Source: a virus
Lineage: Duplodnaviria; Caudoviricetes
Direction: 5' to 3' (one strand)
IMG/VR virus record: IMGVR_UViG_3300022178_003667
Span: 1 to 38,734 of that record
Length of the DNA stretch: 38,734 nt
The position numbers and the translations under genes were made by a program. The notes below the pieces were generated by a model that made no database searches, had not been told where the DNA came from, and saw only the letters and a program-made list of their open reading frames with translations. Positions 15,845-38,630 of this stretch are shown piece after piece. Position 1 is the first letter of the stretch, and each line of letters starts with the position of its first letter.

Positions 15845-15896
15845 TGTTAACAGTCGATAAAACCCATAAAAAACGGTTTTTATCTTAGTGTTAGTA
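15845..15896. repeat. attC-like site A (compact, 52 bp)
   Basis: TGTTAAC-AGTC-GATAAAACC...GGTTTTTATC-TTAGT-GTTAGTA, one extra base in the right arm. Confidence 0.65.
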
Positions 15897-15906
15897 GCAA
15901 TAAAAA

Positions 15907-16116
15907 TTACTTCCATAGTTCATTATTTAGATGCTCTAACCTATAAATGTAGTCGTTCTCGTTTTGTCTTAATTTACCAAGTTTATTAATCATACTATCA
16001 AGGTATTTTTCTGTTTTGCTAATTTCGTCTTGTAGTTGTACTTGGTCAAGCCTGTTATCTTCCAAGCCTTTAGTTTTTAGTTTTATTTGTTTCTCTATTT
16101 GCTTTTTTAAGTCCAT
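15907..16116 (-). CDS. Cassette cargo, coiled-coil hypothetical protein
   Basis: Fills the A-B cassette. Confidence 0.7.
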   Translation of the reverse strand: MDLKKQIEKQIKLKTKGLEDNRLDQVQLQDEISKTEKYLDSMINKLGKLRQNENDYIYRLEHLNNELWK

Positions 16117-16135
16117 TTAACGTAATTTTAAAAGC

Positions 16136-16261
16136 AACTAACAACGTGTATAAAAAATAGCTGTTAAGTGCTTTGGTTAATGTTATTTTATTTTACTCTT
16201 TTACTAATTCAATTTTTAAGTGTGTTAAAACGCTACATTTCATACACAAGTACCGTTATGC
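16136..16261. repeat. attC-like site B
   Basis: AACTAAC-AAC-GTGTATAAAAAATAGC...GCTACATTTCATACAC-AAGTACC-GTTATGC. Confidence 0.8.
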
Positions 16262-16265
16262 ACAA

Positions 16266-16529
16266 TTATTGGCTTTCCATAAATTCTTTTATTTCGTCTA
16301 TTAACCAACCTTTAGATTTAAACCAATGTTGTTTATACATATGCTTAGTAAACGCCAATAACAGTTCACGTTGTTGCATAACATCGCATATAAGTAATTT
16401 ATTTAACTTACTTTCAGCATCCATAAACTCTTGTTCGCAATCATCTAAGCAAGGTAATAAATCACCGTCTATTTGGTTATTTTCTACTAAATCCCAACTT
16501 TTATCTATTAATTCTCTAATTGTTTTCAT
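16266..16529 (-). CDS. Hypothetical protein starting in the loop of site C and reading through its arm (LLICDV|MQQ)
   Basis: ORF track plus site coordinates. Confidence 0.7.
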   Translation of the reverse strand: MKTIRELIDKSWDLVENNQIDGDLLPCLDDCEQEFMDAESKLNKLLICDVMQQRELLLAFTKHMYKQHWFKSKGWLIDEIKEFMESQ

Positions 16530-16583
16530 TTCTTGTTTTTTTTAATCGTTAAATAAACTACTCATATACGTAATACGTTGGCA
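16376..16583. repeat. attC-like site C (long loop)
   Basis: GCATAAC-ATC-GCATATAAGTA...TACTCATATAC-GTAATAC-GTTGGCA. Confidence 0.75.
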
Positions 16584-16628
16584 ACAATAAAATAAAAAAA
16601 AGGGCGCTCACTGTTGCAGTTGTACGTG

Positions 16629-17378
16629 TTAAAAAAGGCTTTGTTGGTTATTTTTGTAATTTGTCACTAATATTTCAGTTCTTTTGTTTTTAAGGTTTTG
16701 TCTTTCACCTATATAAACGATATTCAATCCTCTTTTTTGTGCTTGTTCAATAATAAATGGGTGGTCAAACTCACTAACTGCAAATTTATGTTTAGTGCTT
16801 TCAAGGCAATTAAAAAGACTTTCACTTTGTTCTTCAGTAAAACTACTAGAGTAATTATCAGCAGTTCCTAAATATGGTGGGTCACAGTAAATAAAACAAT
16901 TACCTCTAAACTCAATACCTTTCAAAAACTTTTCAAAGTCCATATTTGCAAACTGAACATCTTTTATAAATTCAAAAGTTTTATCTAAATATTTATAGAC
17001 ATTTAACTTATCATTTCTTGCTCCTAACCTCATTGTACTTCCTCTACCATTTAAAACAAAATTAGATAATGCTAAAAACCTTAACGCTTTTTTTACAGGA
17101 GTATCTTCTTCATTTTTTAACCAATATTTTATTAAGTCAGAATGTAAAGGCATTATTTCAAATTGTCTTTCTAATTCGTCTTTTTGGTTACTTACAACTT
17201 GAAACAAATTAAACACATCAGAGTCTAAATCATTAACAATATTATAATTAACTTTTGGTTTATTAAAGAACATACCTCCTGCACCAAAAAACGGCTCAAC
17301 ATACATATTATGTGCAGGAAAATAACTTTGTATATGTTCAGCTAACTTCTTTTTATTTCCTAATCTTCTTAAAATCAT
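16629..17378 (-). CDS. Dam-like (D12 class) N6-adenine DNA methyltransferase, cassette cargo
   Basis: GNKKKL, EPFFGAGG, VNDLD, YCDPPY. Confidence 0.9.
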   Translation of the reverse strand: MILRRLGNKKKLAEHIQSYFPAHNMYVEPFFGAGGMFFNKPKVNYNIVNDLDSDVFNLFQVVSNQKDELERQFEIMPLHSDLIKYWLKNEEDTPVKKALRFLALSNFVLNGRGSTMRLGARNDKLNVYKYLDKTFEFIKDVQFANMDFEKFLKGIEFRGNCFIYCDPPYLGTADNYSSSFTEEQSESLFNCLESTKHKFAVSEFDHPFIIEQAQKRGLNIVYIGERQNLKNKRTEILVTNYKNNQQSLF

Positions 17379-17430
17379 TACGTGTTATTTGGTTTTTATC
17401 AAAACCACGCCCTTTTTTTTATTTTACAGT

Positions 17431-17563
17431 AGCCAACACTGTATAAAGTTAATAGCTACTTTTAGCGTGTTTAAGATGTTATTTAATTAATTCAATACTC
17501 TTTGTTTATTTATTAAAGTTAGTGTTTTAAATACGCTACTAACCTTATACGATTCCGTTAGAG
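17431..17563. repeat. attC-like site D
   Basis: AGCCAAC-ACT-GTATAAAGTTAATAGC...GCTACTAACCTTATAC-GATTCC-GTTAGAG. Confidence 0.8.
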
Positions 17564-17566
17564 TAG

Positions 17567-17597
17567 CAAAGATATACTAATTTTTCATAAAAACAAA
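17567..17597 (-). promoter_or_regulatory. Host-type promoter facing array 1 and the replication operon (Pc-like position)
   Basis: Minus strand TTTG-N19-TATCTTTG, 4 nt from site D. Confidence 0.7.
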
Positions 17598-17606
17598 TTA
17601 ATTAAC

Positions 17607-17632
17607 ACAAAAAAAATAAAATAAGTTATCTT
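17607..17632 (+). promoter_or_regulatory. Phage late-promoter motif
   Basis: ACAA-N14-GTTATCTT before the tail operon. Confidence 0.7.
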
Positions 17633-17650
17633 TTTATACAAAAATACAAT

Positions 17651-18361
17651 ATGAATCATAGTTTAGAGCTAAAAATACCAAAGACATTAAGGAACATAAG
17701 ATTACATCAATGGGTTAAGTTTTTAGATATTTATGAGAAAAATAAAGATTCAGAAAACCAAGAGTTTTTAAATAAGAAGGTTTTAGAGATATTTTGCGGT
17801 GTTTCTTTGAAAGAAATATATAAAATACCAATATCTAGCTTTGATGCTGTATTAAGTCATATATACAACTTGTTAAACTCTAATACACCTTTAATTAGAA
17901 CATTTAAACTGAAAGGAGTTGATGATGTAGAGGTGGAGTTCGGTTTTATACCCAACCTAGACAAAATGTCTTATGGAGAGTGGGAAGATTTAGAGAATTA
18001 CATACATGAACCTAAGAATCTACATAAAGCAATGGCTGTATTATACAGACCAATAGCCTTTAAGAAGAAAGATAGGTACTTAATTCACGAATATAAAGGA
18101 AGTGAAGAGTATTCGGAAGTAATGAAGGATATGCCAATAGATGTAGCTCTAGGTGCTAAGGTTTTTTTTTATCGTTTAGCGAGAAAATTAGGGGATTATA
18201 CGATGGCTTATACTCTGAAAGAGTTACAGGAGAGAGAGGAGAATCACTTAAACGAGGATTCGGAAAAAAATGGGGAAGTTATCAAGCAATATTTGAACTC
18301 GCTGGAGGTGATGTCGGAAAAATTGACGAGGTTACAAAGCTTCCAGTACACCAATGTTTAA
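17651..18361 (+). CDS. Tail assembly chaperone (G-like)
   Basis: 236 aa with an internal T9 slippery run and an open -1 frame. Confidence 0.6.
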   Translation: MNHSLELKIPKTLRNIRLHQWVKFLDIYEKNKDSENQEFLNKKVLEIFCGVSLKEIYKIPISSFDAVLSHIYNLLNSNTPLIRTFKLKGVDDVEVEFGFIPNLDKMSYGEWEDLENYIHEPKNLHKAMAVLYRPIAFKKKDRYLIHEYKGSEEYSEVMKDMPIDVALGAKVFFYRLARKLGDYTMAYTLKELQEREENHLNEDSEKNGEVIKQYLNSLEVMSEKLTRLQSFQYTNV

Positions 18362-18429
18362 TGTATTTAGAGTACGTTAAAGAAAGAAATGAGTTAGAAA
18401 ATAAAATGGCAAAACAAGCACTAAGATAA
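18163..18429 (+). CDS. -1 frameshift extension of the tail chaperone (GT-like)
   Basis: T TTT TTT at 18163-18169; -1 frame open to TAA 18427-18429 (…FGKKWGSYQAIFELAGGD…LMYLEY…), TAATG-coupled to the next gene. Confidence 0.7.
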   Translation, partial: FFLSFSEKIRGLYDGLYSERVTGERGESLKRGFGKKWGSYQAIFELAGGDVGKIDEVTKLPVHQCLMYLEYVKERNELENKMAKQALR

Positions 18430-18887
18430 TGAACCATGTTTACAATATATTAGACGTTATAAAAGACGAATTAAGAGCAAATCCATCAGTAAATACTGTT
18501 ACTTATGGTGATATAGCAGATATAGACCTAGATAAGACTACAATGTTTCCATTATCACACATTTTAATAGAGAGTGCTGTTTATGGAGAAAGAACGGTAA
18601 CTTTTACTATAAAGATATTATGTGCGGACATTATTGACTACAACAAGTTTAAGAGTGATTTTGATGATTTCTACGGAAATGACAACCTACACGATGTTAC
18701 AAATACACAGTTCGAGGTCATAAACTCATTAATAATGAAACTAACTAGAGGTGATTTATTTGCAGGTAACTATCAAGTAACTACAAGACCTTCCGCAGAG
18801 CCATTTAAAGAGCGTTTTGCGAACGTTTTAGCAGGATGGAGTGTTTCTTTTCAGGTAGAGGTTCAAAATGGCATAAGCATCTGTTAA
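18429..18887 (+). CDS. Putative tail terminator/completion protein
   Basis: 152 aa; FPLSH...PFKERF.N.LAGW; synteny. Confidence 0.5.
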   Translation: MNHVYNILDVIKDELRANPSVNTVTYGDIADIDLDKTTMFPLSHILIESAVYGERTVTFTIKILCADIIDYNKFKSDFDDFYGNDNLHDVTNTQFEVINSLIMKLTRGDLFAGNYQVTTRPSAEPFKERFANVLAGWSVSFQVEVQNGISIC

Positions 18888-18888
18888 A

Positions 18889-19404
18889 ATGGATGAAAAC
18901 CTAAACATAGGGTTAGAGACTGTAGGTAAACTTATAACAGACAAGTTAAAGGTTGTTGCTAAGGAGGATGGGTTTTATTCATCAGGTAAACTAGATAATG
19001 CTTTTAGGTATGAAGCAGCGGCAAATAACCTAGCTATTTTTAGTGCTAAATATGCAAGAGCCTTATCTGACGGAGTTACTAAAGACAAGTCTTACTCTAA
19101 AGTAGGTGAGGATTTTAAAAATTCTATACTTAAATGGGCAAAAATTAAAGGAATGAGACCTAACACTAGAAATAGCAAAGGTCAATTCAGTAAAATAAAA
19201 GATTATCATTGGAACTCAATGGCTATAGCGTTAGCTATAGGTATAAGAAGAAATGGTATTTCTAAAAGATTTGGATATAAAGGTAGTGGATTCTTTGATA
19301 CTATGCAAGACCAATTAAAGGAACAAATAAGAACAATCCTAAGTGATAGTTATAAAATGGATTTAAAAACACAAATAAGAAAAGATGGCATTAATACTAA
19401 CTAG
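18889..19404 (+). CDS. Putative neck/tail completion protein
   Basis: Basic; SGKL...ILKWAKIKG...GIRRNGI pattern. Confidence 0.5.
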   Translation: MDENLNIGLETVGKLITDKLKVVAKEDGFYSSGKLDNAFRYEAAANNLAIFSAKYARALSDGVTKDKSYSKVGEDFKNSILKWAKIKGMRPNTRNSKGQFSKIKDYHWNSMAIALAIGIRRNGISKRFGYKGSGFFDTMQDQLKEQIRTILSDSYKMDLKTQIRKDGINTN

Positions 19405-20584
19405 GAGTCCATATTATATAAGTAGAGCTAATTTAGATGATGGAGCTGTATTGACATTAGATATAGGTAATATTGATGTTTTTGACTTTAATATATTTAA
19501 AACATATACTTTAAATTTCAGGTCTAAACTATTTGTAGACATCTCTCCATTAATAAGGGATTGGTTTGAAGCCACGTATACATATAACACATCTCAATAT
19601 GATGTAGATAAAGGACAGAAAAATATAGTATATGTAAGAACAACTTTAGCTGGTAATATAAGTGGTGTTTCTCAGACTTCAATAGAAGGAGAGTATTTTG
19701 CTACTGATGGTTACCTGTATGGTACTGATGACTACAACGAAGATAAAAGTGATTTTCTTAGGAAAAATGCTTACTATACAGGAAGTTCAGACACGATATA
19801 TAAGTTAGACGATTCTAATATTAGATTAACATTCTTAAAAACAGATGATGATTTAATACCTGTATTCCCAATACCTACAAATCCTGTTTACATAAAGTAT
19901 TACAATAAAGGAGTTGTGGTACAAGAAAACCAATTCTTTCCAGATGATGACGATTCTGAAACTTACTACGAAACTGTATCTAACTTAGATTACGACTCTT
20001 ATAAAGCTAGAGTTTCTAGCGATAGCGGTACTTTTGAAATTTCAAAGTGCTTAAACTCATTCTTCAGGGAGTTTAGTTTAGATGAGGTAGATGAGATATT
20101 ACTATCATCACAGCCTTACGGTTTTACAGACAATATTGTGAAAAAAATAAAAGTAAATACAATATCGGAATGCAAATACACTCCTTACAGAATAACCTTT
20201 AAAAACAGATTTGGTGCTGATGAGGATTTATGGTTTTTCAAGAAGTCATCTAAATCACTAAAGGTTTCAAAAGAAGATTTTAGGTCTAATGAGTTTAAGG
20301 CATATAATGCAGGAGAGACAACTAGACAAATGCAACAATACAATAAAAATGGAAGAGAGTTATTGACGTTAAATTCTGGATTTGTTGTAGAAGAATTAAA
20401 TAAATCATTTAAACAATTAATGTTATCAGAGGAAGTTACTTTATACGACTTTAAGAATGACATTACAAGTGCTGTTAATATAACAAACGGAGAGCTAGAG
20501 TACAAAACGGTAACAAACGATAAATTGATAAATTACACGATAGATGTGGAATTTGCTAATGATGTAATAAATAACATTGTTTAA
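19385..20584 (+). CDS. Putative distal tail/baseplate protein
   Basis: RSPY...ECKYTPY.ITF.N.FG...LNSGFV; tail module. Confidence 0.55.
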   Translation: MALILTRSPYYISRANLDDGAVLTLDIGNIDVFDFNIFKTYTLNFRSKLFVDISPLIRDWFEATYTYNTSQYDVDKGQKNIVYVRTTLAGNISGVSQTSIEGEYFATDGYLYGTDDYNEDKSDFLRKNAYYTGSSDTIYKLDDSNIRLTFLKTDDDLIPVFPIPTNPVYIKYYNKGVVVQENQFFPDDDDSETYYETVSNLDYDSYKARVSSDSGTFEISKCLNSFFREFSLDEVDEILLSSQPYGFTDNIVKKIKVNTISECKYTPYRITFKNRFGADEDLWFFKKSSKSLKVSKEDFRSNEFKAYNAGETTRQMQQYNKNGRELLTLNSGFVVEELNKSFKQLMLSEEVTLYDFKNDITSAVNITNGELEYKTVTNDKLINYTIDVEFANDVINNIV

Positions 20585-23355
20585 TGAGATTACAACCACA
20601 ATTATATATAGATACTAGCGGAAACCCTTTAGGAGAGCCTAATTTTGAGAGGGTAGATTTCTTTAACTTTGAAGAAATAGAATTAACATCGTCTATACAA
20701 GATGTTAGAGATATATCTAAGGTGTTCACAGATTTCTCACAAGAGTTTTCTCTACCTGCATCTAAAACTAATAATAAGATATTTAAGCACTACTATAATG
20801 TTAGTATAGATAACGGATTTGATGCTAGAATAAAGCAAAAAGCAGAGATTTACTTAAATGGTTTGTTTTTTAGGTCTGGATATATTAGACTATCTGAATC
20901 TGTGGTTAAAAATGGTTCTGTTTACTCGTATAGGGTAACTTTCTTTGGAGGTATGACAAACCTAAAAAATATAATAGGCGATACAGAGTTATCAAGCCTA
21001 ACTACATTAGATAAATACAATCACGAATACAATATAGATAACGTTTATGATGGTTTTAAGACAGGTTTAGGTCTTGAAGGTGATACTATGGTATTGTCTG
21101 AAAACAGAGACGTAATATACCCATCTATATCAGCATTAAATAAGTGGTTTTATGATAGTTCTGGAGAGAGTGCGCCATCTAGTTTAGTTTTTGCACAAGG
21201 GAAATCTACAAACCTTTATGACTCTAACTTAGACGGTTCTCATGGGTTAGATTTTACAGACCTAAAACCAGCTATAAAAGTAAAGCATATTGTTTCGGCA
21301 ATACAAGATAAGTACGCAAGTATAAACTTTTCTGATGATTTCTTTGGTTCGGAGCATTTTGACAAGGCTTATATGTTGCTTCACAACTCTAAAGGATTAC
21401 TTGCACCAACATCAAATCCTGATACTTCTGCATCTATAACTTACAGAGTTGGTACTAATGATGAGGATTCTGATTTTGAGCTAGATGTTACTTATCAAGA
21501 GCAGAGACCGATGGAAACGTTTTGGGAAAATGGAGGTTTGTTAAAAACAGATGTTCAGCAGTATCATATTATACCTAGCGTAACTGTATTATCTCCATTA
21601 ACAGGTAATTTATACACTATAGAGGTTTTAGACGGAACTAATGTTATTGCTAAGGCAGAAAATGTAACAGGAGATAACAGCTTAACGGCTATATTGTGTT
21701 CTGAGAACGTAAAGATATGGGATGATATATCTGTAAGAATAAGCTCTAATGGGTTTTTGAATACTTATGAGTTAGATTTAGAAATAAAACAAGTTAGATA
21801 TAGAACAGACTCTATAAGTGTATCTTGTGATGGCGCAGGAATACCTAGCGACACATTATCTTCTTTTTACTCTACATTTGTAGGTACGCAAGTGCTTTTA
21901 AGTAAAATTGAAATAACAAAGAATGTTCCTAAAATGAAGATTTTAGACTTCTTGAAAGGGCTGTATAATGCCTTTAATTTAACATCTTTTGTGGATGATA
22001 ATGGTGTTATTGTAGTGAAACCACTTCCAGAATATTACAATGACGGAAACACTATAGATATAACTAAATTTGTAGATAACGAAGATATTTCTGTAAAAAG
22101 AATGAGTCTTTACAAGAATGTAGAATTTAAGTTCTCTGAGCCTAAAACTTTTGGTATTATAAATAAAAACGAAATATCACAAGTAGAGTTTGGGGATTTG
22201 GAATTTGAGTCTTCTGCTGACGGTACTAACTCTAGTTTAATATTTGACGGTAAGAACTACAAAATACAACTACCTTTTGAGAAAATGTATTTCGAGAGGC
22301 TTTCTGACGAAAATGATTTACAAGACTTTACACCTATGAGTAATGGATGGTTAGCTGATAGTAACCAAAGCCCTACTATCACAAAACCTATATTGTTTTA
22401 CAATATTTCACAAGCTGTTAGTTTTTCTAGTTACAAGTTAGGGTTTTTAAGTAAAGGGGGTTTTTCTACATATAACAGGGCTAGTAATAATACGCTAACA
22501 AGAGACAGAAGTTTGAATTTTGGTATTGAGTTTGATGAATTTTCAGGGTTAGAAGTAACCAATAGTTTGTTTAGTCGGTATTATAGCGAATACATATCTA
22601 CTATATTTGACAAGCGGACTAGAATATTTGACTTAAAAATGAAGGCTAATCTAGGTTTTTTACTAGACTATAATTTAAACGATACCTTGCTAGTTAAGGG
22701 AGAGGAGTTTATCATAAACAACATAAGGACTAATCTAACTACAGGTTTAACGGATATTGAGTTAATACTTAAATTCCCTACGGTAGTTCCTTCGGTAGTG
22801 CCTAGTTCACCACCAACAACACCTACTGATTTAACATTAGCTTTTGCTGGTAACTATAGTTTGACATTTAATTGGGGTGCTAGTACGGATGATTCTGAGT
22901 TGGTTGGTTATAATATTTATATTGATAGCGTTCTTTATGATACAATAGCGGTATTTACAGAATATACTGCTTTTAATTTAGATATAAATACATCTTATCA
23001 GATTCAAGTATCTGCGTTAGATGATGACGGAAACGAGTCTTCATTAACATCTATTGTTGCAATGAGTACAACTAATACAAGAGATGTAGTACCTCCATCA
23101 CAACCTCAAAACATTAGATATAGTAATATCTCTGATACTACCATAAACTTAGAATGGGATGCTAGTACAGATAATATTGGTGTTGTTGGATATGATATTT
23201 ACATAGACGGAGTGAATACTTACACAGTAGCAGGGTTAAGTAAAGAGATTACATTATTAACATCAAGAACAGATTACTTGGTTAAAGTACAAGCGGTAGA
23301 TGGCGCAGGTAACGTGTCTATCTTTAGTGATACATTAAATATACAAACATTATGA
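20584..23355 (+). CDS. Tail hub/baseplate protein with two C-terminal fibronectin type III domains
   Basis: FTDFSQEFSLPASKTNNKIFKH N-terminus; two FN3 repeats (W.ASTD...GY.IY...Y..QV.A.D..GN.S). Confidence 0.75.
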   Translation: MRLQPQLYIDTSGNPLGEPNFERVDFFNFEEIELTSSIQDVRDISKVFTDFSQEFSLPASKTNNKIFKHYYNVSIDNGFDARIKQKAEIYLNGLFFRSGYIRLSESVVKNGSVYSYRVTFFGGMTNLKNIIGDTELSSLTTLDKYNHEYNIDNVYDGFKTGLGLEGDTMVLSENRDVIYPSISALNKWFYDSSGESAPSSLVFAQGKSTNLYDSNLDGSHGLDFTDLKPAIKVKHIVSAIQDKYASINFSDDFFGSEHFDKAYMLLHNSKGLLAPTSNPDTSASITYRVGTNDEDSDFELDVTYQEQRPMETFWENGGLLKTDVQQYHIIPSVTVLSPLTGNLYTIEVLDGTNVIAKAENVTGDNSLTAILCSENVKIWDDISVRISSNGFLNTYELDLEIKQVRYRTDSISVSCDGAGIPSDTLSSFYSTFVGTQVLLSKIEITKNVPKMKILDFLKGLYNAFNLTSFVDDNGVIVVKPLPEYYNDGNTIDITKFVDNEDISVKRMSLYKNVEFKFSEPKTFGIINKNEISQVEFGDLEFESSADGTNSSLIFDGKNYKIQLPFEKMYFERLSDENDLQDFTPMSNGWLADSNQSPTITKPILFYNISQAVSFSSYKLGFLSKGGFSTYNRASNNTLTRDRSLNFGIEFDEFSGLEVTNSLFSRYYSEYISTIFDKRTRIFDLKMKANLGFLLDYNLNDTLLVKGEEFIINNIRTNLTTGLTDIELILKFPTVVPSVVPSSPPTTPTDLTLAFAGNYSLTFNWGASTDDSELVGYNIYIDSVLYDTIAVFTEYTAFNLDINTSYQIQVSALDDDGNESSLTSIVAMSTTNTRDVVPPSQPQNIRYSNISDTTINLEWDASTDNIGVVGYDIYIDGVNTYTVAGLSKEITLLTSRTDYLVKVQAVDGAGNVSIFSDTLNIQTL

Positions 23356-25824: not shown

Positions 25825-25825
25825 A

Positions 25826-28857: not shown

Positions 28858-29412
28858 TTGAGTTGTGATATTTCAAGAGGTAGATTAGAGCCTTGTAAAG
28901 ACTCTGTAGGAGGGTTAAACGCTATCTATTTCGTAAACAAAGGAGATATTGATTTAACAGACGTTACATACGATGTTACTGATACAGATGTGATTGATTC
29001 TGTTGGTACTGGTGTAGCTGCTTATAAATTCGATATTAGAAACGCATCAACATTTACAGAGAACATTCAGTCTAGTAGAGAGAATGGAACTACTGTATTT
29101 GAGCAGGTGCTAGAATTAACTTTAAGCAAGTTAACCAAAGAAGACCATAAAACCGTTAAATTACTTTCTTACGGAAGTCCTACTATTTTAGTAGAAGATA
29201 ATAACGGAAACGTATTTATTGCAGGACTAGAACATGGTTGCGATGTAACTGGTGGTACTATAGTAAGTGGTGGTGCAATGGGTGATTTAAGTGGATATAC
29301 TCTATCTTTCTCAGGAATGGAAAGAGTACCTGCAAACTTTATATTAGCTAATGCTAGTGGAGTTGCTGCTGCTTTAACTGCTGTTGGATTTACAGTAACG
29401 GCAGGAGTTTAG
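28858..29412 (+). CDS. Major tail tube protein (TTG start)
   Basis: CDISRGRLEPCKDSVGGL...SRENGTT.FEQ...GDLSGYTL. Confidence 0.75.
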   Translation: MSCDISRGRLEPCKDSVGGLNAIYFVNKGDIDLTDVTYDVTDTDVIDSVGTGVAAYKFDIRNASTFTENIQSSRENGTTVFEQVLELTLSKLTKEDHKTVKLLSYGSPTILVEDNNGNVFIAGLEHGCDVTGGTIVSGGAMGDLSGYTLSFSGMERVPANFILANASGVAAALTAVGFTVTAGV

Positions 29413-30052: not shown

Positions 30053-30068
30053 AGGTCAAATATACGAA

Positions 30069-30557: not shown

Positions 30558-30560
30558 TAT

Positions 30561-32056: not shown

Positions 32057-32805
32057 TACTTAAATTTTGATACTTTGCCATAATTCTCTAAAATCATTGG
32101 AACGGCAATAGCTTCTTTACCACCAATTACAACACCACAACCAATAGCAGGTTTCTTTCCTGCTTTAGCATATCCAAACGCATACTGCTCGTGGTCTATT
32201 CCACAACCAACTTGCATACCAAACACTCTATTTTTACGACCTACAATGTATTCAACGTACAGCTGAGTGTGTAAATGTCCTTGCACTACAGATTGTAAAT
32301 CATTTTTACATTTACCTCTAGCGGTTCCGCCTTCTCCATGAGCATACAAAACCCCATCATGCTCTAATTCTGTATGAAATCTCCAATTAGGAACACCAAG
32401 AACTTCATTATATTCTCTAATCCATTCTCTAGGAATACCTCCTGATTGTGCTTTTCTCATTATAAGTCTACTATGGTTACCTATGATTACATCAACGTTA
32501 GGAAATTGTTTATAGTATCTTGCTAACCTCTTTTTAGCAAATTCTAATTCTTCTCCACCACCCATTCCGTTAGCATCTGTTTCGTGATAAGAGCTGTAAT
32601 GGTGGTCTAATTCATCGCCAATATGCACAACTTTGTTACAGTTGTATCTTTCGTAAGTGTCAACCAAGAAATCTAAGTAAGTACATAAATCAAATGGGCA
32701 ATGAGTGTCCCCTATAATTAAAACCCTACTTTCTTCGCTAGTCCATTTATCGTACATCTTTTTTACCTGACCTCTTAATCTAGGTCTAAATGATTTTTTA
32801 GTCAT
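32056..32805 (-). CDS. Calcineurin-like metallophosphoesterase
   Basis: GDTH, GDELD, GNH, HG and GHLH motifs. Confidence 0.88.
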   Translation of the reverse strand: MTKKSFRPRLRGQVKKMYDKWTSEESRVLIIGDTHCPFDLCTYLDFLVDTYERYNCNKVVHIGDELDHHYSSYHETDANGMGGGEELEFAKKRLARYYKQFPNVDVIIGNHSRLIMRKAQSGGIPREWIREYNEVLGVPNWRFHTELEHDGVLYAHGEGGTARGKCKNDLQSVVQGHLHTQLYVEYIVGRKNRVFGMQVGCGIDHEQYAFGYAKAGKKPAIGCGVVIGGKEAIAVPMILENYGKVSKFK

Positions 32806-32887
32806 ATTATTTATATTTATATAAATGTATTAATTTATGTTATTTTTTAAAAATATACTTATTAACAAATATATTGTTGTTTTAATT

Positions 32888-33145
32888 TTAAATATTTTCT
32901 AAGTCTATTAATATCTTTTTTAAAGCATCAGAACAATCATCATAATCATTACTAATTAGTGCTTTCTGTTCATCTATTCTTTTGATTGATAAAAATTTTT
33001 TACCTACCCAAATACCAAAACTCCTTCCGTTTTCAACTAATCTTATATAGTTCCCAGTTTTTTTATTGTAGAAGATTGTATTTATATCATTTAAAATAAT
33101 ATGATTCCATTCTTTCAAAGTGTAATTCAAGGCATTTTTATCCAT
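32888..33145 (-). CDS. Hypothetical protein
   Basis: ORF track. Confidence 0.6.
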   Translation of the reverse strand: MDKNALNYTLKEWNHIILNDINTIFYNKKTGNYIRLVENGRSFGIWVGKKFLSIKRIDEQKALISNDYDDCSDALKKILIDLENI

Positions 33146-33294
33146 TTATAAAGGTTTTTTGCTTTGGTTAAAGTCATATTAATAGTAGTTAGAGTTAATA
33201 TGGTGCTAGATGCCTATCCATTACGTTCAGCGACCATCTATAATTTACTAAGGTAATTGCTGAAACATTATCCCTTTCAATCGCACCATACTAA

Positions 33295-33427
33295 CAATAA
33301 CAATGTATATAAAAAATAGGGGGTGGCGTAGTCAAACCTAATTGTTTCTTTACTAAATTACCACTGGCGAAACGTCTATTATGTACCTATTTTAAACCCC
33401 TAAATTTCATATACTTTAAAGTTATAT
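33295..33427. repeat. attC-like site E
   Basis: CAATAAC-AAT-GTATATAAAAAATAGGGG...CCCCTAAATTTCATATAC-TTTAAA-GTTATAT. Confidence 0.8.
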
Positions 33428-33435
33428 GCAAGTGC

Positions 33436-34200
33436 TTAATGTTCGTGCAATATCAATTCTATGTCCTTTAAATCTTTTTCTTTTATTTTTTTTTCCATCC
33501 TCTCACTCGCAACCTTAAAATATTCATCATTTAATTCCATACCTAAAAAACGCCTATTTGTGTTCAAACAAGCTATTCCAGTAGAGCAACTTCCCATTGT
33601 ATTGTCCACAACTAAATCGCCTTCATCTGTAAATAAGTTTATTAAAAACTCGTTAAGTTCTACATTTTTTTGAGTTGGGTGCAATTGAGGGCTAAACACA
33701 TTCGTATATTTTAAAACTGTTCTTGGATAGCCTGTTTTAGTCATTGTGTATTCATTACTTCTGCTTCTTCTTGTTCCATAAACACCACTTTCGTCAGGTC
33801 TTTTAACTTTCTTATTGCAATCTTTTAAAGTTGGGTTGTATTTAGGTAATTTTTTGTAAAATACTAATATATTTTCGTGGCTTCTTAAAGGCATTTTCTT
33901 TGCGTTAAAGAAGCCAACAGGTTTTGTTTTTTCCCAAATAATTTCGTATCTAAAATATTTTCTATAAGCATTAATCAAATCACTTGCAAAAGGTTGTTGT
34001 GCATAAAGTAATATTATACCATTATCAGTAATTATTCTATCATAATGCTTAAATAAAATATCTAAATCAAGGGTTTTATCCCATTCGTTTTTATCAGTAG
34101 TTCCATAAGGTAAATCACATAAAATCATATTTACGCTTTTATTAGGTACTTCTTCCATAATTTTAAGGCAATCACCTTTTAATAAACTTAATGTATTCAT
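33436..34200 (-). CDS. N4/N6 DNA methyltransferase (beta class), cassette cargo
   Basis: GDCL, CDLPY, IIWEK, HPTQK, DNTMGSCSTG. Confidence 0.9.
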   Translation of the reverse strand: MNTLSLLKGDCLKIMEEVPNKSVNMILCDLPYGTTDKNEWDKTLDLDILFKHYDRIITDNGIILLYAQQPFASDLINAYRKYFRYEIIWEKTKPVGFFNAKKMPLRSHENILVFYKKLPKYNPTLKDCNKKVKRPDESGVYGTRRSRSNEYTMTKTGYPRTVLKYTNVFSPQLHPTQKNVELNEFLINLFTDEGDLVVDNTMGSCSTGIACLNTNRRFLGMELNDEYFKVASERMEKKIKEKDLKDIELILHEH

Positions 34201-34289
34201 TTTGCTATCGCAATTTGCCCTCGCTCAAAAATAAAAGAAAAAGGGTCGGTTAATAATTCAAACTTTTGTGCTTTAAAGTCGCACCAGAC

Positions 34290-34421
34290 ATATAACAACG
34301 TATATAAAAAAGGCGGTGTAATTTATTGAGTATCGGAGCTATCTGCACGTCTGCAAGGTCATTGCCACAATAAACGTCACTTACTTTTAATCCGCCCATT
34401 TCATATACAAGTACGTTGGTA
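34290..34421. repeat. attC-like site F
   Basis: ATATAAC-AAC-GTATATAAAAAAGGCGG...CCGCCCATTTCATATAC-AAGTAC-GTTGGTA. Confidence 0.8.
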
Positions 34422-34443
34422 ACAATTGCTAAAAAAAGCCACC

Positions 34444-34944
34444 TCACTCGGTCGGCTCACTCTTAATGAAACAAATCCAATGAGTTTGCATAGCTTTTCC
34501 GCTTTTATGTCCGTAAAGCGGTTTTTCTTCTGTTAAAGCTAAGATTTCTTTTATTGGTATTCTACATTCATTCCATTTAAAAATTAGTGTTCCATTTGGT
34601 TTTAATACTCTAAAACATTCTATAAATCCTTTTCTTAACATTTCTTTCCAATCACCGGTTAAATGTCCATATTGTTTACATATTGCACCAGTCATAGTTT
34701 TTTGTGGTATATGTGGTGGGTCAAAAACAATATGGTAAAATGAATTATCTTCTTGTTTTATATTTGTAAAATCCCCTATTTCATCAGGTTCAACTATTAT
34801 ATTTCTATCATAGCCATCTTTTCTTTTTATTATGTGTTTCTCTTGTCTTTTATCTAAAAACAATGCTCTTTCATCTTGTTTATTAAACCACATACTTTTT
34901 GGCCCACAGCAAACATCTAATACTTTTTTCCTACTCATAATCAT
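34444..34944 (-). CDS. SAM-dependent (DNA amino-)methyltransferase, cassette cargo
   Basis: VLDVCCG..SMWF, VFDPPH, ECFRVLKPNG.LIFKW; start placed inside the cassette (34944 or 34938). Confidence 0.82.
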   Translation of the reverse strand: MIMSRKKVLDVCCGPKSMWFNKQDERALFLDKRQEKHIIKRKDGYDRNIIVEPDEIGDFTNIKQEDNSFYHIVFDPPHIPQKTMTGAICKQYGHLTGDWKEMLRKGFIECFRVLKPNGTLIFKWNECRIPIKEILALTEEKPLYGHKSGKAMQTHWICFIKSEPTE

Positions 34945-34986
34945 TTTATTTTTTTGCAAAAATAAGTGGCTTTTTTTATCAACAGT

Positions 34987-35117
34987 AACCAACAACGTAT
35001 ATAATTTATTGCTGCTAATCACTGTTTTACCAAGTTATTTTTATTATTTATACTATTCTATTATTTAATTATTTCAGTTCTTTAAATCGCAACAAACCAT
35101 ATACAAATACGTTAGCA
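34987..35117. repeat. attC-like site G
   Basis: AACCAAC-AAC-GTATATAATTTATTGC...GCAACAAACCATATAC-AAATAC-GTTAGCA. Confidence 0.8.
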
Positions 35118-35121
35118 TTAA

Positions 35122-35382
35122 TTAAGATTCTAGCCAATCTGCATAAGATTTGAAGTTATCAGCACTTTCAACGTGCTTAATTATAGATTCCAAATCATTA
35201 GGTATATATAACCAACTTGCAGATAGTTCCCAACTATAATTTTGCCATATATTACCGCACTCATCTAGTGTGCAAAGTATATCTCTGTGCAATACCAATG
35301 CTTTTTGTATTCTAATCAAATCTTCTTTAGGTTCTTGCTTATGGTATTCGTCTGTTACTATTTGGTCTCGTAAGTGTATCAT
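35122..35382 (-). CDS. Cassette cargo, hypothetical protein
   Basis: Fills the G-H cassette. Confidence 0.7.
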   Translation of the reverse strand: MIHLRDQIVTDEYHKQEPKEDLIRIQKALVLHRDILCTLDECGNIWQNYSWELSASWLYIPNDLESIIKHVESADNFKSYADWLES

Positions 35383-35392
35383 AATTAACTAA

Positions 35393-35489
35393 TGCTAACA
35401 ATGGCTATAAATAAAAGCCTTTGCTAAGGTTATTTCTTTGAATCAATCATTTGTTATACGGCTTCAATTCATAGCCGTAGCCGTTGGTA
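35393..35489. repeat. attC-like site H
   Basis: TGCTAAC-AAT-GGCTATAAATAAAAGCC...GGCTTCAATTCATAGCC-GTAGCC-GTTGGTA. Confidence 0.8.
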
Positions 35490-35523
35490 ACAATTGCTAA
35501 AAAAGCCACCTCACTCTTGTAGC

Positions 35524-36429
35524 TTACTCATATTCGTGAAAATTGAATATATTAGTTTGATAATTTATTTCTTGATGCGTTTCACTCACTTCGTCTAAAT
35601 CTTTTACACCACAAGCTAAACCATTGCAATCTGTTAATGGTTGTGGTGGTCTGCCTTTCATCATTGAAATATCTTTTATGTTTGGGTAGTCTGGGTGCGG
35701 TTTTAGAAATACTAAACCCCCTCCTTTGCTTTGGTCTTTTAACATTGTTACGGGTTCGCCTTTTAAGTCTGTTAGTTCGTGTTCAATCTTAGACATTGCG
35801 TTAAATTTAGAGAGCCATATTCCACCCATGTCCCTAAATTTTTGCCAGTACCCTATTCCTCCTTGCACGCAACCTCCAGTTGTAGGGGTTGAACCTAAAC
35901 AATTGTTATTTAAAAATCCTAGTACATAAGCCATTGGTAATTTTAAACCTTCATCTTGTATTAACTGAACACAATCTTTTTTTGTATATCCGTACATCAA
36001 TAATGGAAATATAGGTTTTGCAGTTTTACGATAATTGTTAACCATAGATTTAACTCGTCTAATTTCATCAACATCAAATCCAAATGCTTGTGCTTGGTAA
36101 CTATTTTCTTTTTCCCATTCTTTTCTTAATTGTCTTTTTAATTCAGAAGAACAAACTGCACCACCAGCAACATTTAAAGATTTGTATTTATACCAAACAT
36201 CTTGTATTTTTTCATACTTTTTACCTTTACCTATTCTTGTAATAGTTTCAATTTCCTTACCATACCATTTTTCACAGTCTTTTTTAAATCTGTAAGTGTC
36301 TTCATCTTCATTAAATGTATCAATGAAAATTAATCTTACGTTTTCAACTCCATAAATGTCTATGCAAAGTTTACAAGTTACTGCACTTGTAACACCACCA
36401 GACCACCAACCTATTATTTTATTTTTCAT
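35524..36429 (-). CDS. PAPS-reductase-like (PP-loop adenine nucleotide alpha-hydrolase) protein, cassette cargo
   Basis: WWSGGVTSA PP-loop, EDEDTYRF, C...LK, GF.NNNC....GCV.GG.GYW. Confidence 0.75.
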   Translation of the reverse strand: MKNKIIGWWSGGVTSAVTCKLCIDIYGVENVRLIFIDTFNEDEDTYRFKKDCEKWYGKEIETITRIGKGKKYEKIQDVWYKYKSLNVAGGAVCSSELKRQLRKEWEKENSYQAQAFGFDVDEIRRVKSMVNNYRKTAKPIFPLLMYGYTKKDCVQLIQDEGLKLPMAYVLGFLNNNCLGSTPTTGGCVQGGIGYWQKFRDMGGIWLSKFNAMSKIEHELTDLKGEPVTMLKDQSKGGGLVFLKPHPDYPNIKDISMMKGRPPQPLTDCNGLACGVKDLDEVSETHQEINYQTNIFNFHEYE

Positions 36430-36653
36430 AATTCTATAATTTCTTTTGTTTCTTCTTTAAAATAATCCCTTGCCATTTCTAAATTAGAGTAACTTAAATC
36501 ACAAGGTAATAATTCTGTAAAATATCCATTTAACCAAAGTTCATCGCTTTTATATCTTTTCCAATACCCCCCAAATAAATTAAAAAACCATTTGTTTTTA
36601 TAATATTCTGGATAATACCTATTACCTTCTTTTACTATTCTTTTATCACTCAT
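36426..36653 (-). CDS. Cassette cargo, hypothetical protein
   Basis: ATGA-coupled to the PP-loop gene. Confidence 0.65.
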   Translation of the reverse strand: MSDKRIVKEGNRYYPEYYKNKWFFNLFGGYWKRYKSDELWLNGYFTELLPCDLSYSNLEMARDYFKEETKEIIEL

Positions 36654-36701
36654 ATTCTTTATTTTAATTTTTCAAATTAATGTGGCTTTTTTAGCAACTG
36701 T

Positions 36702-36832
36702 AACCAACAATGTGTATAATTTAGTGCTACTAATCGTCTGTTTAACCACTTATTTTTATCATTTACACTATTCTACTATTTATTAATTTTCTTGCTTTAA
36801 ATCGCACCAAACCATACACAAATACGTTGGTA
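36702..36832. repeat. attC-like site I (paralogue of G)
   Basis: AACCAAC-AAT-GTGTATAATTTAGTGC...GCACCAAACCATACAC-AAATAC-GTTGGTA. Confidence 0.8.
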
Positions 36833-36842
36833 GTAATGTGCC

Positions 36843-37136
36843 TTACTTATTAAATAGTTCAGGCTTATAAACAGATTTCTTGCAATAATCCTCTAACTTT
36901 ATGTATTGGTTATCAGGGCAACACGCAAGATATTTCTTATCTATTACTTTAGTGCTTAAACTTCCACAGCCAGTGCATACTTTCGGCAAACTACAACCAA
37001 CATCGGTTATAATTAATTGTTCAGTCACGTAATCATAAGCAACATCATTTATTTCTTGTCGCTTATCTACTGGCACTTCTGCTAAATCAAAGAGTTGTGC
37101 CACTATTCCTATTGCTTGTTTTTCTAAATTTTTCAT
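36843..37136 (-). CDS. Hypothetical protein starting in the loop of site J (QLIITDV|GCS), with Cys-rich C-terminus
   Basis: ORF track plus site coordinates; CTGC...CC. Confidence 0.7.
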   Translation of the reverse strand: MKNLEKQAIGIVAQLFDLAEVPVDKRQEINDVAYDYVTEQLIITDVGCSLPKVCTGCGSLSTKVIDKKYLACCPDNQYIKLEDYCKKSVYKPELFNK

Positions 37137-37193
37137 TCTATTTAATTTTTTGTTTTAATAAATCACAACTAATCATAACCACATCCGTTATAA
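36995..37193. repeat. attC-like site J (long loop)
   Basis: AACCAAC-ATC-GGTTATAATTAATTGT...ACAACTAATCATAACC-ACATCC-GTTATAA. Confidence 0.8.
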
Positions 37194-37364
37194 AACATTT
37201 TTTTTAATAAACTTAATCCATTCTTCCATAGTTAAGTGTTTGTGAAAAATACCATCAGTACTATATTGTATTAATTTAGTGCCATCTAAAAGAGCAGAGT
37301 AACGTATATTATTGCTAAGGTCTATATTTTTCATTTCTGTTCTTTTTAATTTACTTATTTCCAT
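37188..37364 (-). CDS. Cassette cargo, hypothetical protein (58 aa)
   Basis: Manual translation MEISKLKRTEMKNIDL...; TAA stop overlaps the GTT core of site J. Confidence 0.6.
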   Translation of the reverse strand: MEISKLKRTEMKNIDLSNNIRYSALLDGTKLIQYSTDGIFHKHLTMEEWIKFIKKNVL

Positions 37365-37375
37365 AAAAAAACTTT

Positions 37376-37505
37376 TAATAACACTGTATATAAAAAATAA
37401 AGTGTTAGTGATTAATATTAATTTTCAGCTAATCTAAGTACTATTTTTGTAACCACCAAATAAAAGTATACAATTCTTTAAATTTCATATACAAATCAGT
37501 TATCT
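37376..37505. repeat. attC-like site K
   Basis: TAATAAC-ACT-GTATATAAAAAATAAAG...CTTTAAATTTCATATAC-AAATCA-GTTATCT. Confidence 0.75.
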
Positions 37506-37720
37506 ACAAGTTTCTTCTGGTTCGTGTTCCTTTACATATTTATAGAATCTACATAAAGCTTGTTCATACCTTTTTTTGGCTGTGCTATTTGCAAATGCCA
37601 TAGGTGTTAAATCGAAAATTACAGATATCTTGGTATTTGATAGCTGTAATTCTTTTTTTAGAAGTCTTTCTTGGTTTTGCTTATCTTATAAGCATCAAAT
37701 ATTGCTATATTGTATATCAT
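37500..37720 (-). pseudogene. Chimeric pseudogene: 20 codons of an 8441-like gene joined out of frame to a start-less HTH-like cargo remnant
   Basis: 37720-37661 is 55/60 identical to 8441-8500, then TAA; another frame reads LKKELQLSNTKIS...KKRYEQALCRFY...TAA ending on the K core. Confidence 0.6.
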
Positions 37721-37738
37721 TGGTTTATTGTTTAGTTA

Positions 37739-37930
37739 TTAGTACACTCTTATTGTGCATCTATTATTAATTATATTAAACACTTCCTCATGGTACTCTT
37801 CTGGTATACCTTCCTCGTTTATAGCATCTTGTATTTCTTCCATTAACGTATCTATTACTGAAGATTCCCATACACTACAATTAGCAGCATAATCCATTAC
37901 TTTCTGTTTTCTTTTTTCTTCTGGTGTCAT
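37739..37930 (-). CDS. Hypothetical protein
   Basis: ORF track. Confidence 0.6.
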   Translation of the reverse strand: MTPEEKRKQKVMDYAANCSVWESSVIDTLMEEIQDAINEEGIPEEYHEEVFNIINNRCTIRVY

Positions 37931-38058
37931 ATCTTTATATTTTTACTGGTTAATTGCTCCTTTAAGTACCTTCTGCATTCAGCATCACTTTTGCTATGTC
38001 TAATTTTATTATAAGTAGAATTATCTATATTGCTTATAAAATTTATTATATTTTCCAT
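37927..38058 (-). CDS. Loop-encoded ORF of truncated site L (43 aa)
   Basis: MENIINF...YLKEQLT-SKNIKI; ATGA-coupled to the next ORF. Confidence 0.5.
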   Translation of the reverse strand: MENIINFISNIDNSTYNKIRHSKSDAECRRYLKEQLTSKNIKI

Positions 38059-38118
38059 TTGTATTTATTTAATTTGTTTTTATTTATCCGCAACTAACTT
38101 TAACCATATAAGTTGTGT
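37949..38118. repeat. attC-like site L (left arm truncated)
   Basis: Intact right half GCAACTAACTTTAACC-ATATAA-GTTGTGT; only GTTAATTGC of the left arm remains. Confidence 0.6.
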
Positions 38119-38186
38119 GTAATGCGGTTGGATAACCGTTCTGTAAAAGCTACATCATTACGTAACCGCACTACAAGCCTTTCGGC

Positions 38187-38314
38187 ACACAACTATGGTT
38201 AAATGTAATACCTAACCAATAGTAATGTCAAAACTAATTATATCATTCATAATCGCTTATTTATAAAATTATAGTAGTTTTTCTCGGCACTACACTTAAC
38301 CGTTTAAGTTGTAA
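38187..38314. repeat. attC-like site M
   Basis: ACACAAC-TAT-GGTTAAATGTAATACC...GGCACTACACTTAACC-GTTTAA-GTTGTAA. Confidence 0.8.
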
Positions 38315-38319
38315 ACAAT

Positions 38320-38472
38320 TTACTTACCTCGTGGTACAAAGAAAGTCCAAGTTTTTGCTTGTGGGTGTTCTGCTCTCCAAATTTTGTATTTAATAAACCC
38401 AATTCCGTAAATAAGACCACAGAATCCTAATATAATTAAAGCAATAGTAAAATTTTCTTTTAGTTTTTTCAT
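38320..38472 (-). CDS. Cassette cargo, small single-pass membrane protein (50 aa)
   Basis: MKKLKENFTIALIILGFCGLIYGIGFIKYK...; read manually. Confidence 0.6.
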   Translation of the reverse strand: MKKLKENFTIALIILGFCGLIYGIGFIKYKIWRAEHPQAKTWTFFVPRGK

Positions 38473-38630
38473 CGTAAACAATTTACAACATCGGTTAAAG
38501 TTAATTGCTTTTTTAGGTATTCTATATTATTAAAATTTAACCTAATGTAATCTCCTGTTTGTAATTTAATGTTTAAATAACCATCTTTTATCCAATGGTC
38601 TTTAACGTTTGGTAATTTATTTATGTCCAT
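38469..38630 (-). CDS. Loop-encoded ORF of site N (53 aa), ATGA-coupled to the cargo
   Basis: MDINKLPNVK...YLKKQLTLTDVVNCLR; read manually. Confidence 0.55.
   Translation of the reverse strand: MDINKLPNVKDHWIKDGYLNIKLQTGDYIRLNFNNIEYLKKQLTLTDVVNCLR

Follow-up and report, generated by a model that had tools for sequence, protein, structure and literature searches.

Integron-like cassettes in a flavobacterial-type phage: a 14-bp outer arm, a mismatch at position 11 and putative reusable shell ends

The window analyzed here, a stretch of 38,734 nucleotides (positions 1 to 38,734 of IMG/VR record IMGVR_UViG_3300022178_003667), is a 38.7-kb flavobacterial-type phage that carries two arrays of cassettes with their genes lying antisense. 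The GTT end of one site in these arrays is complementary to the AAC end of the next, which raises the question of whether such matches are the footprint of a site that is whole only in an excised circle, and whether the longest of them extend the recombination substrate. Our account, which we hold to be probable, is that these are integron-like cassettes of the Bacteroidota, with G/TT ends, a 14-bp arm carrying an A/C mismatch at position 11, and a Xer-like tyrosine recombinase that lacks the IntI insertion.

Both arrays (Table 1) are CALIN-type clusters, with sites but no integrase nearby, including beside the heads A and E0; the sites are not canonical attC. A PF00589 profile search of the window's genome, a record estimated to be 100% complete, gave no match: the phage has no tyrosine recombinase. 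An Rfam scan of the window returned 0 matches. The long cassette ORFs all lie on the minus strand. The 87-aa ORF of cassette B-C starts within its own site C and reads through the AAC box, and the M-N ORF at 38469-38630 (-) starts within site N. The cargo, largely DNA methyltransferases, likely counters host restriction. No relatives of the C-D methylase were confirmed in viral contigs; two other cargo proteins used as bait retrieved 117 loci, of which only 9 had detectable sites, 3 of these being copies of the window. The head E0 was absent from the first-pass annotation, and one assembled contig ends at 33190.

Table 1. Cassettes, sites and associated features of the window (coordinates on the plus strand of the window; ORF strand in brackets)
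Feature	Coordinates	Strand	Contents and remarks
ERF single-strand annealing protein	14077..14652	-	
Site A, putative attI-like head of array 1	15849..15892	+	GTT at 15890; lacks the 3/6 inner stem
Cassette A-B with own site B (16140-16254)	15890..16254	+	69-aa ORF 15907-16116 (-)
Cassette B-C with own site C (16380-16576)	16255..16576	+	87-aa ORF 16266-16529 (-)
Cassette C-D with own site D (17435-17556)	16577..17556	+	D12-class adenine methyltransferase 16629-17378 (-)
C-D outer stem, GTT arm	16577..16606	+	GGGCG shell family
C-D outer stem, AAC arm	17408..17437	+	27/30 complementary to GTT arm; also recovered independently
Head GTT E0 (33188) and cassette E0-E with site E (33299-33420)	33188..33420	+	
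Cassette E-F with site F (34294-34414)	33421..34414	+	N6/N4 methyltransferase 33436-34200 (-)
Cassette F-G with site G (34991-35110)	34415..35110	+	Methyltransferase 34444-34944 (-)
F-G GCCAC-shell arms	34415-34442 and 34966-34993		
Cassette G-H with site H (35397-35482)	35111..35482	+	86-aa ORF 35122-35382 (-)
Cassette H-I with site I (36706-36825)	35483..36825	+	PAPS-reductase-domain ORF 35524-36429 (-); 75-aa ORF 36426-36653 (-)
H-I GCCAC-shell arms	35483-35509 and 36682-36708		
Cassette I-J with own site J (36999-37186)	36826..37186	+	97-aa ORF 36843-37136 (-), start within site J
Cassette J-K with site K (37380-37498)	37187..37498	+	58-aa ORF 37188-37364 (-)
Decayed cassette K-L	37499..38111	+	Right arm of site L present; left arm and cognate AAC end looked for, not found
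Cassette L-M with site M (38191-38307)	38112..38307	+	
Cassette M-N with site N (38487-38678)	38308..38678	+	ORFs 38320-38472 and 38469-38630 (-); next GTT 38679

All ten match counts of the first-pass annotation were reproduced (A-B 8/9, B-C 7/7, C-D 27/30, E-F 8/8, F-G 24/28, G-H 14/15, H-I 25/27, I-J 14/17, L-M 8/8, M-N 13/16), B-C being in fact 8/8, and the set was enlarged by J-K (15/18) and E0-E (15/19). The two boxes of a single site do match less well, as had been noted for B and G (4/7 each); the within-site range is 3-6 of 7, with site I at 6/7. When the 12 cognate pairs were compared with 200,000 shuffled pairings, a test that ignores kinship (F-G and H-I have common ends), true pairings exceeded shuffled ones at positions 4-7 (40/48 against 18.7; within-site 17/52), 8-12 (35/60 against 23.6) and 13-20 (65/96 against 30.6), each at p ≤ 1.2e-4, and at positions 21-30 (51/120 against 33.9, p=0.004). 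With C-D, F-G and H-I removed, the excess persists at positions 13-20 (42/72 against 22.4, p=2e-5) and is not significant at positions 21-30 (24/90 against 24.8, p=0.61). The proposal that the cross-match records a site whole only in the excised circle is thus borne out by the failure of shuffled ends to score as well, as it is by the predicted stability of the circle and by G/TT indels in relatives.

Related arrays in host chromosomes delimit the arm. The host set comprises 155 unique Flavobacteriaceae chromosomal cassettes from 48 loci, all recovered with a single 22-nt pattern from 11 of the 64 parts into which the genome collection is divided. The system is common, one such pattern being estimated to match about 770 stretches stored in the collection. 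In these cassettes the end match extends to position 14 and then ceases: positions 4-9, 12 and 13 are matched in 82-92%, position 10 in 65% and position 14 in 70%, with background from position 15. When the detector was run with A/G bonuses switched off and seed sites excluded, position 11 was A in 176/176 host sites, with C opposite in 152. The window follows the same rule, which had been overlooked, with A on the GTT side in 12/12 pairs, facing C in nine and matched in one. A GTTRRRY consensus does not describe the 176 host sites, as only position 4 is a fixed purine, while T at position 5 and C at position 6 each occur in 45%. The conserved mismatch had instead been placed at position 7, where it does occur in the five pairs named (5/12), but that position was rejected for the family: it is matched in 152/159 host cassettes and mismatched in 13/38 phage cassettes, and is therefore a phage-enriched minority trait. 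Similarly, the 15-30-bp outer stems that had been proposed as an extension of the substrate are longer than the match in classical integrons, but the family-wide extension is 14 bp. In a control of 22 classical cassettes the match fades by positions 10-11 (47/66 at positions 8-10), positions 12-14 score 19/66 against 15.6 shuffled (p=0.19), and A/G occurs at position 11 in 3/22. In the excised circle, the 14-bp arm with its fixed A/C at position 11 likely makes up the outer part of a hairpin folded from the bottom strand.

Structurally, the window sites have spacers of 3/6 in ten cases and 3/7 in two (B and C), and the host sites have 3/6 in 133/194 and 3/5 in 39/194 (together 172/194). In both sets the arms pair without a single-base bulge and without extrahelical bases; the classical attC layout was seen in the 22-cassette control. 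The inner arm of host sites carries an A/C wobble in 88% at position 7 and 92% at position 12. Folding of the circularized junctions in silico, the check suggested by the first-pass annotation, predicts the circle to be more stable than the array form in 12/12 cases, and the bottom strand to be more stable than the top in 12/12, by a mean of 4.2 kcal/mol. The conserved A/C pairs would become T.G wobbles on the bottom strand only and may replace extrahelical bases in strand marking, while G plus about 11 bp plus 2 bp would give Xer-sized half-sites on either side of the spacer.

Four host loci have a recombinase gene 34-150 nt away from the first GTT of the array. By position, a putative non-hairpin attI-type head stands next to the integrase gene in these four loci and in phage Freya. 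The head recombinases fall under the TIGR02249 cut-off in 6/6 cases, as does the 271-aa Freya enzyme (96.5 against 265 bits), and a host head recombinase aligns with IntI4 in two segments and lacks about 43 residues, that is, the IntI insertion. XerA-type and IntI models give these recombinases their highest or close to highest scores. A TIGR02249 search of host genomes placed 0/5 above the cut-off, and in one of the five the top IntI-like match has no site within 1.5 kb. Recombinase and array are linked by adjacency only. A Xer-like tyrosine recombinase without the IntI insertion, provided by the host or by a related phage, probably recombines the cassettes.

Natural gains and losses define the mobile unit. 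Between Danklef_5 and Danklef_3, a 781-bp cassette with a 28-bp stem has been removed from G/TT to G/TT together with its own site, with no duplication beyond the GTT, and Freya_10 versus Freya_9 (307 bp) and Freya_6 versus Freya_5 (472 bp) differ by exact indels at the head GTT, beside the 271-aa recombinase. Each mobile unit is the whole cassette plus its downstream site, cut at G/TT. Assembled contigs also break at window GTTs, consistent with exchange at G/TT, and they begin at 33421 and end at 34417, the edges of E-F. This 876-nt methylase cassette, with a perfect match of no more than 8 bp, was also met in other contexts, and long stems are therefore unnecessary for mobility. Among the joints listed from eight runs of assembled contigs, which drop rare forms, there is no circle junction or exact excision joint, so that the circles are inferred rather than seen; the sequencing runs listed for the window include no RNA. 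Excision as a means of shuffling N- and C-terminal protein halves was rejected: what the ORFs traverse is their own AAC box, not the G/TT crossover.

The stems beyond position 14 behave differently from the arm. Stems of at least 20 bp occur in 11/38 phage and 0/159 host cassettes, and long stems are accordingly not required by the system; stems of at least 22 bp occur in 7/12 long and 1/26 short bodies, the Fisher and shuffle tests on cassettes disregarding common ancestry, and there is no overall correlation of body length with stem length (Spearman 0.12, p=0.47). The long ends fall into shell families with 23-30-base inverted-repeat ends, one of which surrounds nine unrelated genes, and two different shells hold methylases that are 82% identical. 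Shell endings vary (GGGCG, GCCAC, CCGCC, CCCC, CCCG), with both arms changing together in rows that were picked for matching. A shell permutation (136/154 against 79) is not used as evidence, since it is circular for rows so chosen. The 23-30-bp stems of C-D, F-G and H-I are inherited, reusable shell ends (arm, A-tract and GC clamp) typical of long-gene phage cassettes. Their pairing is most likely maintained because it stabilizes the circle junction, the predicted gain in stability of the circle over the array form being 17-21 kcal/mol. Contig joints from 34443/34449 to 34966 fall on the inner limits of the F-G shell, but with sides of only 29-30 nt they are weak. A further reading, which we consider less likely than not, is that flavobacterial phages load genes into reusable shells and so make new cassettes for a second, bulge-free kind of integron with an insertion-less recombinase. 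Under such loading, the 23-30-bp pair would combine a recombination arm that is already matched with a leader for translation and a place to stop, and any gene placed between the shell inner edges would become a mobile cassette. The ERF protein is a putative helper in payload exchange.

The long stems might instead be neutral by-products, with template switching in a single-stranded circle copying arm to arm, and the ends then passing down by descent while payloads are swapped by homologous recombination. Identical shells around unrelated genes, the phage-encoded annealing protein, hosts without long stems, and A-rich leaders and trailers that raise matches through composition in the antisense layout all agree with this possibility. 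We nevertheless consider it doubtful, as the mismatches at positions 7, 10 and 11 are kept inside long stems, shells vary in both arms jointly (with the selection of rows noted above), and even short cassettes match at positions 15-20 more often than within-class shuffles (78/156 against 45.3). The 15-30-bp part could also act as RNA: because transcripts of antisense cassettes correspond to the bottom strand, their leader and trailer would pair on either side of the gene and could steer RNase processing or act in competition with a terminator hairpin at its 3' end. The extension past 14 bp is essentially limited to antisense phage cassettes, and F-G and H-I have at their ends a predicted hairpin (-10.8 and -9.5 kcal/mol) with a U-tract after it, and leaders complementary to the 3' arm and U-tract. 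This role is unlikely, given that most shells lack the local hairpin (only 4/28 rows at -7 kcal/mol or below) and that pairing over 0.4-1.2 kb competes with local folding. Folding does not support a general 3' terminator at shells. The idea that shells are split terminators enclosing an empty loop was likewise rejected: shell patterns retrieved 30 metagenome stretches and 23 viral ones, none of them with an empty shell, a count in which many contigs are too short to include the far end.

That these are ordinary attC sites (CALIN) worked by a classical IntI, with the extra pairing as normal variation, is improbable despite the GTT/AAC triplets, the G/TT crossover, the bottom-strand bias, the classical match running somewhat past 7 bp, and the term CALIN given to a similar array in Polaribacter phage P12002L, as reported in the parts covered of PMC9892861. 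The 3/6 spacers, the missing bulge, the invariant A11 and the host genomes' scores on TIGR02249 all argue against it. In the same parts of that source, IntI1 recombined P12002L attC2 but not attC1. Of these, attC1 is of the present type and attC2 is an array-head sequence; the negative is weak because attC1 was cloned in array form. Terminal repeats of a MITE-like non-autonomous transposon lying in the array would explain 28-bp inverted ends common to unrelated cargo, and yet such an element is very improbable: the Danklef indel takes the downstream hairpin site with the cargo and leaves no duplication, the mobile unit runs about 120 nt past the inverted repeat, the start of the repeat coincides with the family's 14-bp arm, and no transposase was found among the 50 ORFs scanned.

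Compared with attC cassettes of class 1 and of Vibrio and Shewanella sedentary integrons, as described in the parts covered of Nivina et al. 2016 (PMC5027507), the present sites share the AAC/GTT triplets, the G/TT crossover, a downstream site carried by the cassette, cross-cassette complementarity, a bottom strand with more G:T pairs and lower folding energy, and a head site beside a host tyrosine recombinase. They differ in their 14-bp arm with invariant A11 (against an attC box of 7-10 bp), in spacers of 3/6 without extrahelical bases (against 5/6 with extrahelical bases on the L'' arm), in wobbles at fixed positions and in a recombinase without the IntI insertion. Unlike co-oriented integron genes, the phage genes are antisense and sometimes start in the site (50 antisense, 2 sense and 23 unclear in the phage set; 182 sense, 8 antisense and 67 unclear in the host set). 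The P12002L CALIN has in common integrase-less cassette clusters, methyltransferase cargo and a flavobacterial phage; Qi et al. 2023 (PMC9892861) report two sites there, and the parts covered hold neither the geometry, the 14-bp arm nor the shells, while our detector finds nine sites of 3/5-3/7 type. Xer/dif sites, in which a 6-bp centre is flanked by 11-bp arms (Carnoy and Roten 2009, PMC2731167, in part), would fit the present arm lengths only after folding; dif, however, is a single double-stranded site, whereas the present site forms by folding, has an asymmetric centre and carries its invariant A elsewhere in the arm. Smyshlyaev et al. 2021 (PMC8138268), in the parts covered on the 'integron-like' tyrosine recombinase subgroup, term the insertion essential for integron function and tie insertion-less members to no cassette arrays or sites; such a recombinase heads the host arrays. 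The parts covered of the IntegronFinder 2.0 paper (PMC9024848) report almost no complete integrons in Bacteroidetes, and the main text of the Danklef/Freya paper (PMC8776804) uses 'integron' and 'cassette' zero times each. A literature search, thin in its coverage of subscription papers, found no description of the present site type. The circle footprint of the cross-match is known; the 14-bp arm, the position-11 mismatch and the shells appear to be new against the literature covered.

In the textbook view, the link between the IntI insertion and extrahelical bases is what enables hairpin recombination. The present system is evidently active without both, with fixed wobble positions and 14-bp arms in their place. 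Shell-payload reassortment bears on the first origin of cassettes, and shell loading, if true, would be a route by which cassette neogenesis could be observed. The cultured Freya and Danklef phages are ready assay material.

The two ends of each intact cassette in the window, that is, of each unit between the GTT triplets of consecutive hairpin sites (A to N, with head site E0), are complementary. Counting position n as the nth base inward from the GTT end, paired with its complement at the AAC end of the same cassette, the match counts of the first-pass annotation are reproduced exactly. Its suggested comparison with shuffled pairings also favors the true ones: across 12 cognate pairs (GTT end of one site, AAC end of the next), matches exceed the shuffled expectation at positions 4-7 (40/48 vs 18.7), 8-12 (35/60 vs 23.6), 13-20 (65/96 vs 30.6) and 21-30 (51/120 vs 33.9), the last excess being due only to cassettes C-D, F-G and H-I (p=0.61 when these are removed). 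Position 8 is paired in all 12 cassettes using three different bases, and position 11, where the GTT-side base is always A, is matched in one. The suggested in silico folding agrees, with the circle form predicted to be more stable than the array junction in 12/12 cases and the bottom strand predicted to fold better than the top in 12/12.

In itself, such a cross-match of cassette ends is ordinary. A classical control set from Shewanella phage M16-3 and Vibrio phage Va_90-11-286_p16 (22 cassettes) shows 65/66 matches at positions 5-7 and 47/66 at positions 8-10, but only 19/66 at positions 12-14 (vs 15.6 shuffled). In a sample this small, the classical footprint comes out at about 8-10 bp, slightly over 7. 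A/G occurs at position 11 in 3/22 of these cassettes.

The family-wide arm of the cassette ends is 14 bp. Searching with a 22-nt pattern gave 123 genome stretches, and almost all of the 80 listed belong to Flavobacteriaceae or other Bacteroidota. In the host set (155 unique sense cassettes, 48 loci; A at position 11 slightly favored by the detector's scoring), 82-92% are matched at positions 4-9, 12 and 13, 65% at position 10 and 70% at position 14; pairing is at background from position 15, and within-site matches are at the shuffled level. Beyond the AAC end in host loci L248-L370, positions 15-16 are A (top strand) in 91-95% of cassettes, so the stem stops sharply at 14 bp. The claim of an outer stem longer than the classical one thus stands in hosts as a 14-bp arm, but the 15-30-bp length is not family-wide. 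A recount without the A11 bonus, with spacers free and seed sites left out, gives A at position 11 in 176/176 sites, opposite C in 152. It also places A/C-type mismatches at positions 7 (88%) and 12 (92%) of the inner arm, and spacers of 3/6 in 133/194 and 3/5 in 39/194. Outer and inner arms have a one-strand terminal motif, (A or C)-A-T, in common.

Longer stems are confined to phage cassettes. The comparison excluded nine window-copy loci and four duplicate records, retained the window, and kept pairs with at least 4/5 matches over positions 4-6, 8 and 9. Stems of at least 20 bp occur in 11/38 phage cassettes (15 loci) vs 0/159 host cassettes, and stems of at least 22 bp in 7/12 bodies over 350 nt vs 1/26 shorter bodies. 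The recurrent mismatch at position 7 noted earlier is present in 5/12 window pairs and 13/38 phage cassettes (10 with A opposite A), but in only 7/159 host cassettes. Among 616 sites searched, 28 cassettes have stems of at least 22 bp, a set enriched by the shell patterns used and including three rows from the window and one near copy of F-G; none lies within the 426 host sites. These cassettes sort into families having an A-tract and a GC clamp. One such shell (a set of shared 23-30-bp inverted-repeat ends), the GCCAC type of F-G and H-I, surrounds nine payloads, none of which hits another in BLASTP at E 1e-3, and two different shells contain methylases sharing 81.6% identity over 234 aa; shell and payload therefore reassort. 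In long cassettes, the 15-30-bp part of the stem most likely stabilizes the circle junction; neutral inheritance and a role in RNA are live alternative explanations.

The reading of the cross-match as a footprint of real mobile units is borne out by cultured phage isolates, which differ by whole cassettes cut at G/TT. A 781-bp methylase cassette (outer stem 28 bp), running from G/TT to G/TT with the downstream site included, distinguishes Danklef_5 from Danklef_3; it is carried by Danklef_1 and _5 and apparently absent from _2, _3 and _4. Between Freya_10 and _9 the difference is 307 bp, between Freya_6 and _5 it is 472 bp, and in each pair it falls precisely on the head GTT adjoining a 271-aa recombinase. 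Freya_8 lacks 902 bp relative to Freya_10, as much as one shell cassette would span; with its breakpoint at the record end, this shortfall is no more than consistent with precise cassette loss. Freya_10, 9, 8, 6, 5 and 1 (L455-L460; one phage species) carry 0 to ten ORFs beside the 271-aa insertion-less recombinase. In Danklef_1 (L415, 41360-41491) the annotated integrase has only 43 codons and is therefore probably truncated, though Danklef isolates vary by whole cassette. Public contigs aligned to the window have matches starting at 33421 and 37499 and stopping at 33190, 34417 and 35485, all GTT triplets; no circle junction occurs among their listed joints, so the excised circle remains an inference.

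A motif screen of site-bearing loci yielded six tyrosine recombinases, five host and one viral. All six fall under the integron-integrase model cut-off, their alignment to the model split in two pieces, and about 43 residues are absent relative to IntI4 at the place of the IntI insertion. None of five host genomes has an integron-integrase match above cut-off, and in four of the five, sites lie next to the best hit; the gene-to-first-GTT distance is 34-150 nt in four host loci. Viral locus L108 (7574-8374) encodes a 266-aa recombinase of the insertion-less kind adjoining a site. Excerpts of Qi et al. 2023 (PMC9892861) report two P12002L sites assayed with IntI1, of which one failed and the other, 'attC2', recombined. 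In the present analysis the failed one is a 3/6 site. Identical copies of 'attC2' head two arrays (L118, the P12002L locus, 29172-29239 and near 37243), and it is probably an attI-like site.

The window's virus record, whole at 38,734 bases and estimated complete, encodes a terminase, a portal, an ERF annealing protein and three methyltransferases; no tyrosine recombinase was found in it. Relatives of its repeats suggest a flavobacterial host. On the window's - strand the site detector found no sites, nor did it in any of 20 shuffled trials; the long cassette ORFs all run on the - strand.

Arrays, decayed cassette and accompanying features of the window
Feature	Position	Strand	Remarks
Hairpin-site array 1	15849-17559	+	
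Hairpin-site array 2	33188-38681	+	
Decayed cassette K-L	37499-38111		Site L without left arm; near 37947, short remnant resembling left arm minus one repeat unit
ORFs	16266-16529, 36843-37136, 38469-38630	-	Each begins within its own long (190-200 nt) site and crosses inner arm and AAC box; Asp-Val at triplet in each
Terminator-like hairpin and U-tract	34415-34460, 35483-35528		Coding strand, 3' end of F-G and H-I
64-nt inverted repeat	8436-8499 vs 37662-37725		92% complementary; joins early region to decayed K-L cassette
49-nt tandem duplication	9429-9526		86%; non-coding DNA
Short direct repeats	about 6720-6775		Non-coding DNA

The window-type system works in an integron-like manner, yet departs from integrons in insertion, spacers, extrahelical bases, consensus and gene direction; because of several such departures, it is not classed as a canonical integron. 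Excerpts of Nivina et al. (PMC5027507) describe a statistical G:T bias in classical sites and no fixed positions, whereas window-type sites have fixed mismatch positions. No published description of such a site was found in the accessible portions of the literature searched, including PMC8138268, PMC11523902, PMC9024848, PMC4889954, PMC8776804 and PMC8618304. Unit boundaries, arm length, fixed mismatches, geometry, an adjacent insertion-less recombinase and shell reuse are directly supported. Mechanistically, a cassette would be excised as a circle through its folded bottom strand, which T.G wobbles would mark, and the window phage would rely on an enzyme supplied by its host or by another phage infecting the same cell. 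By analogy only, the arms are of a length compatible with dif half-sites of 11 bp (PMC2731167). Follow-up is best aimed at the 14-bp arm, with its proposed wobble marking, and at the reusable shells; the Freya isolates form a ready-made experimental system.
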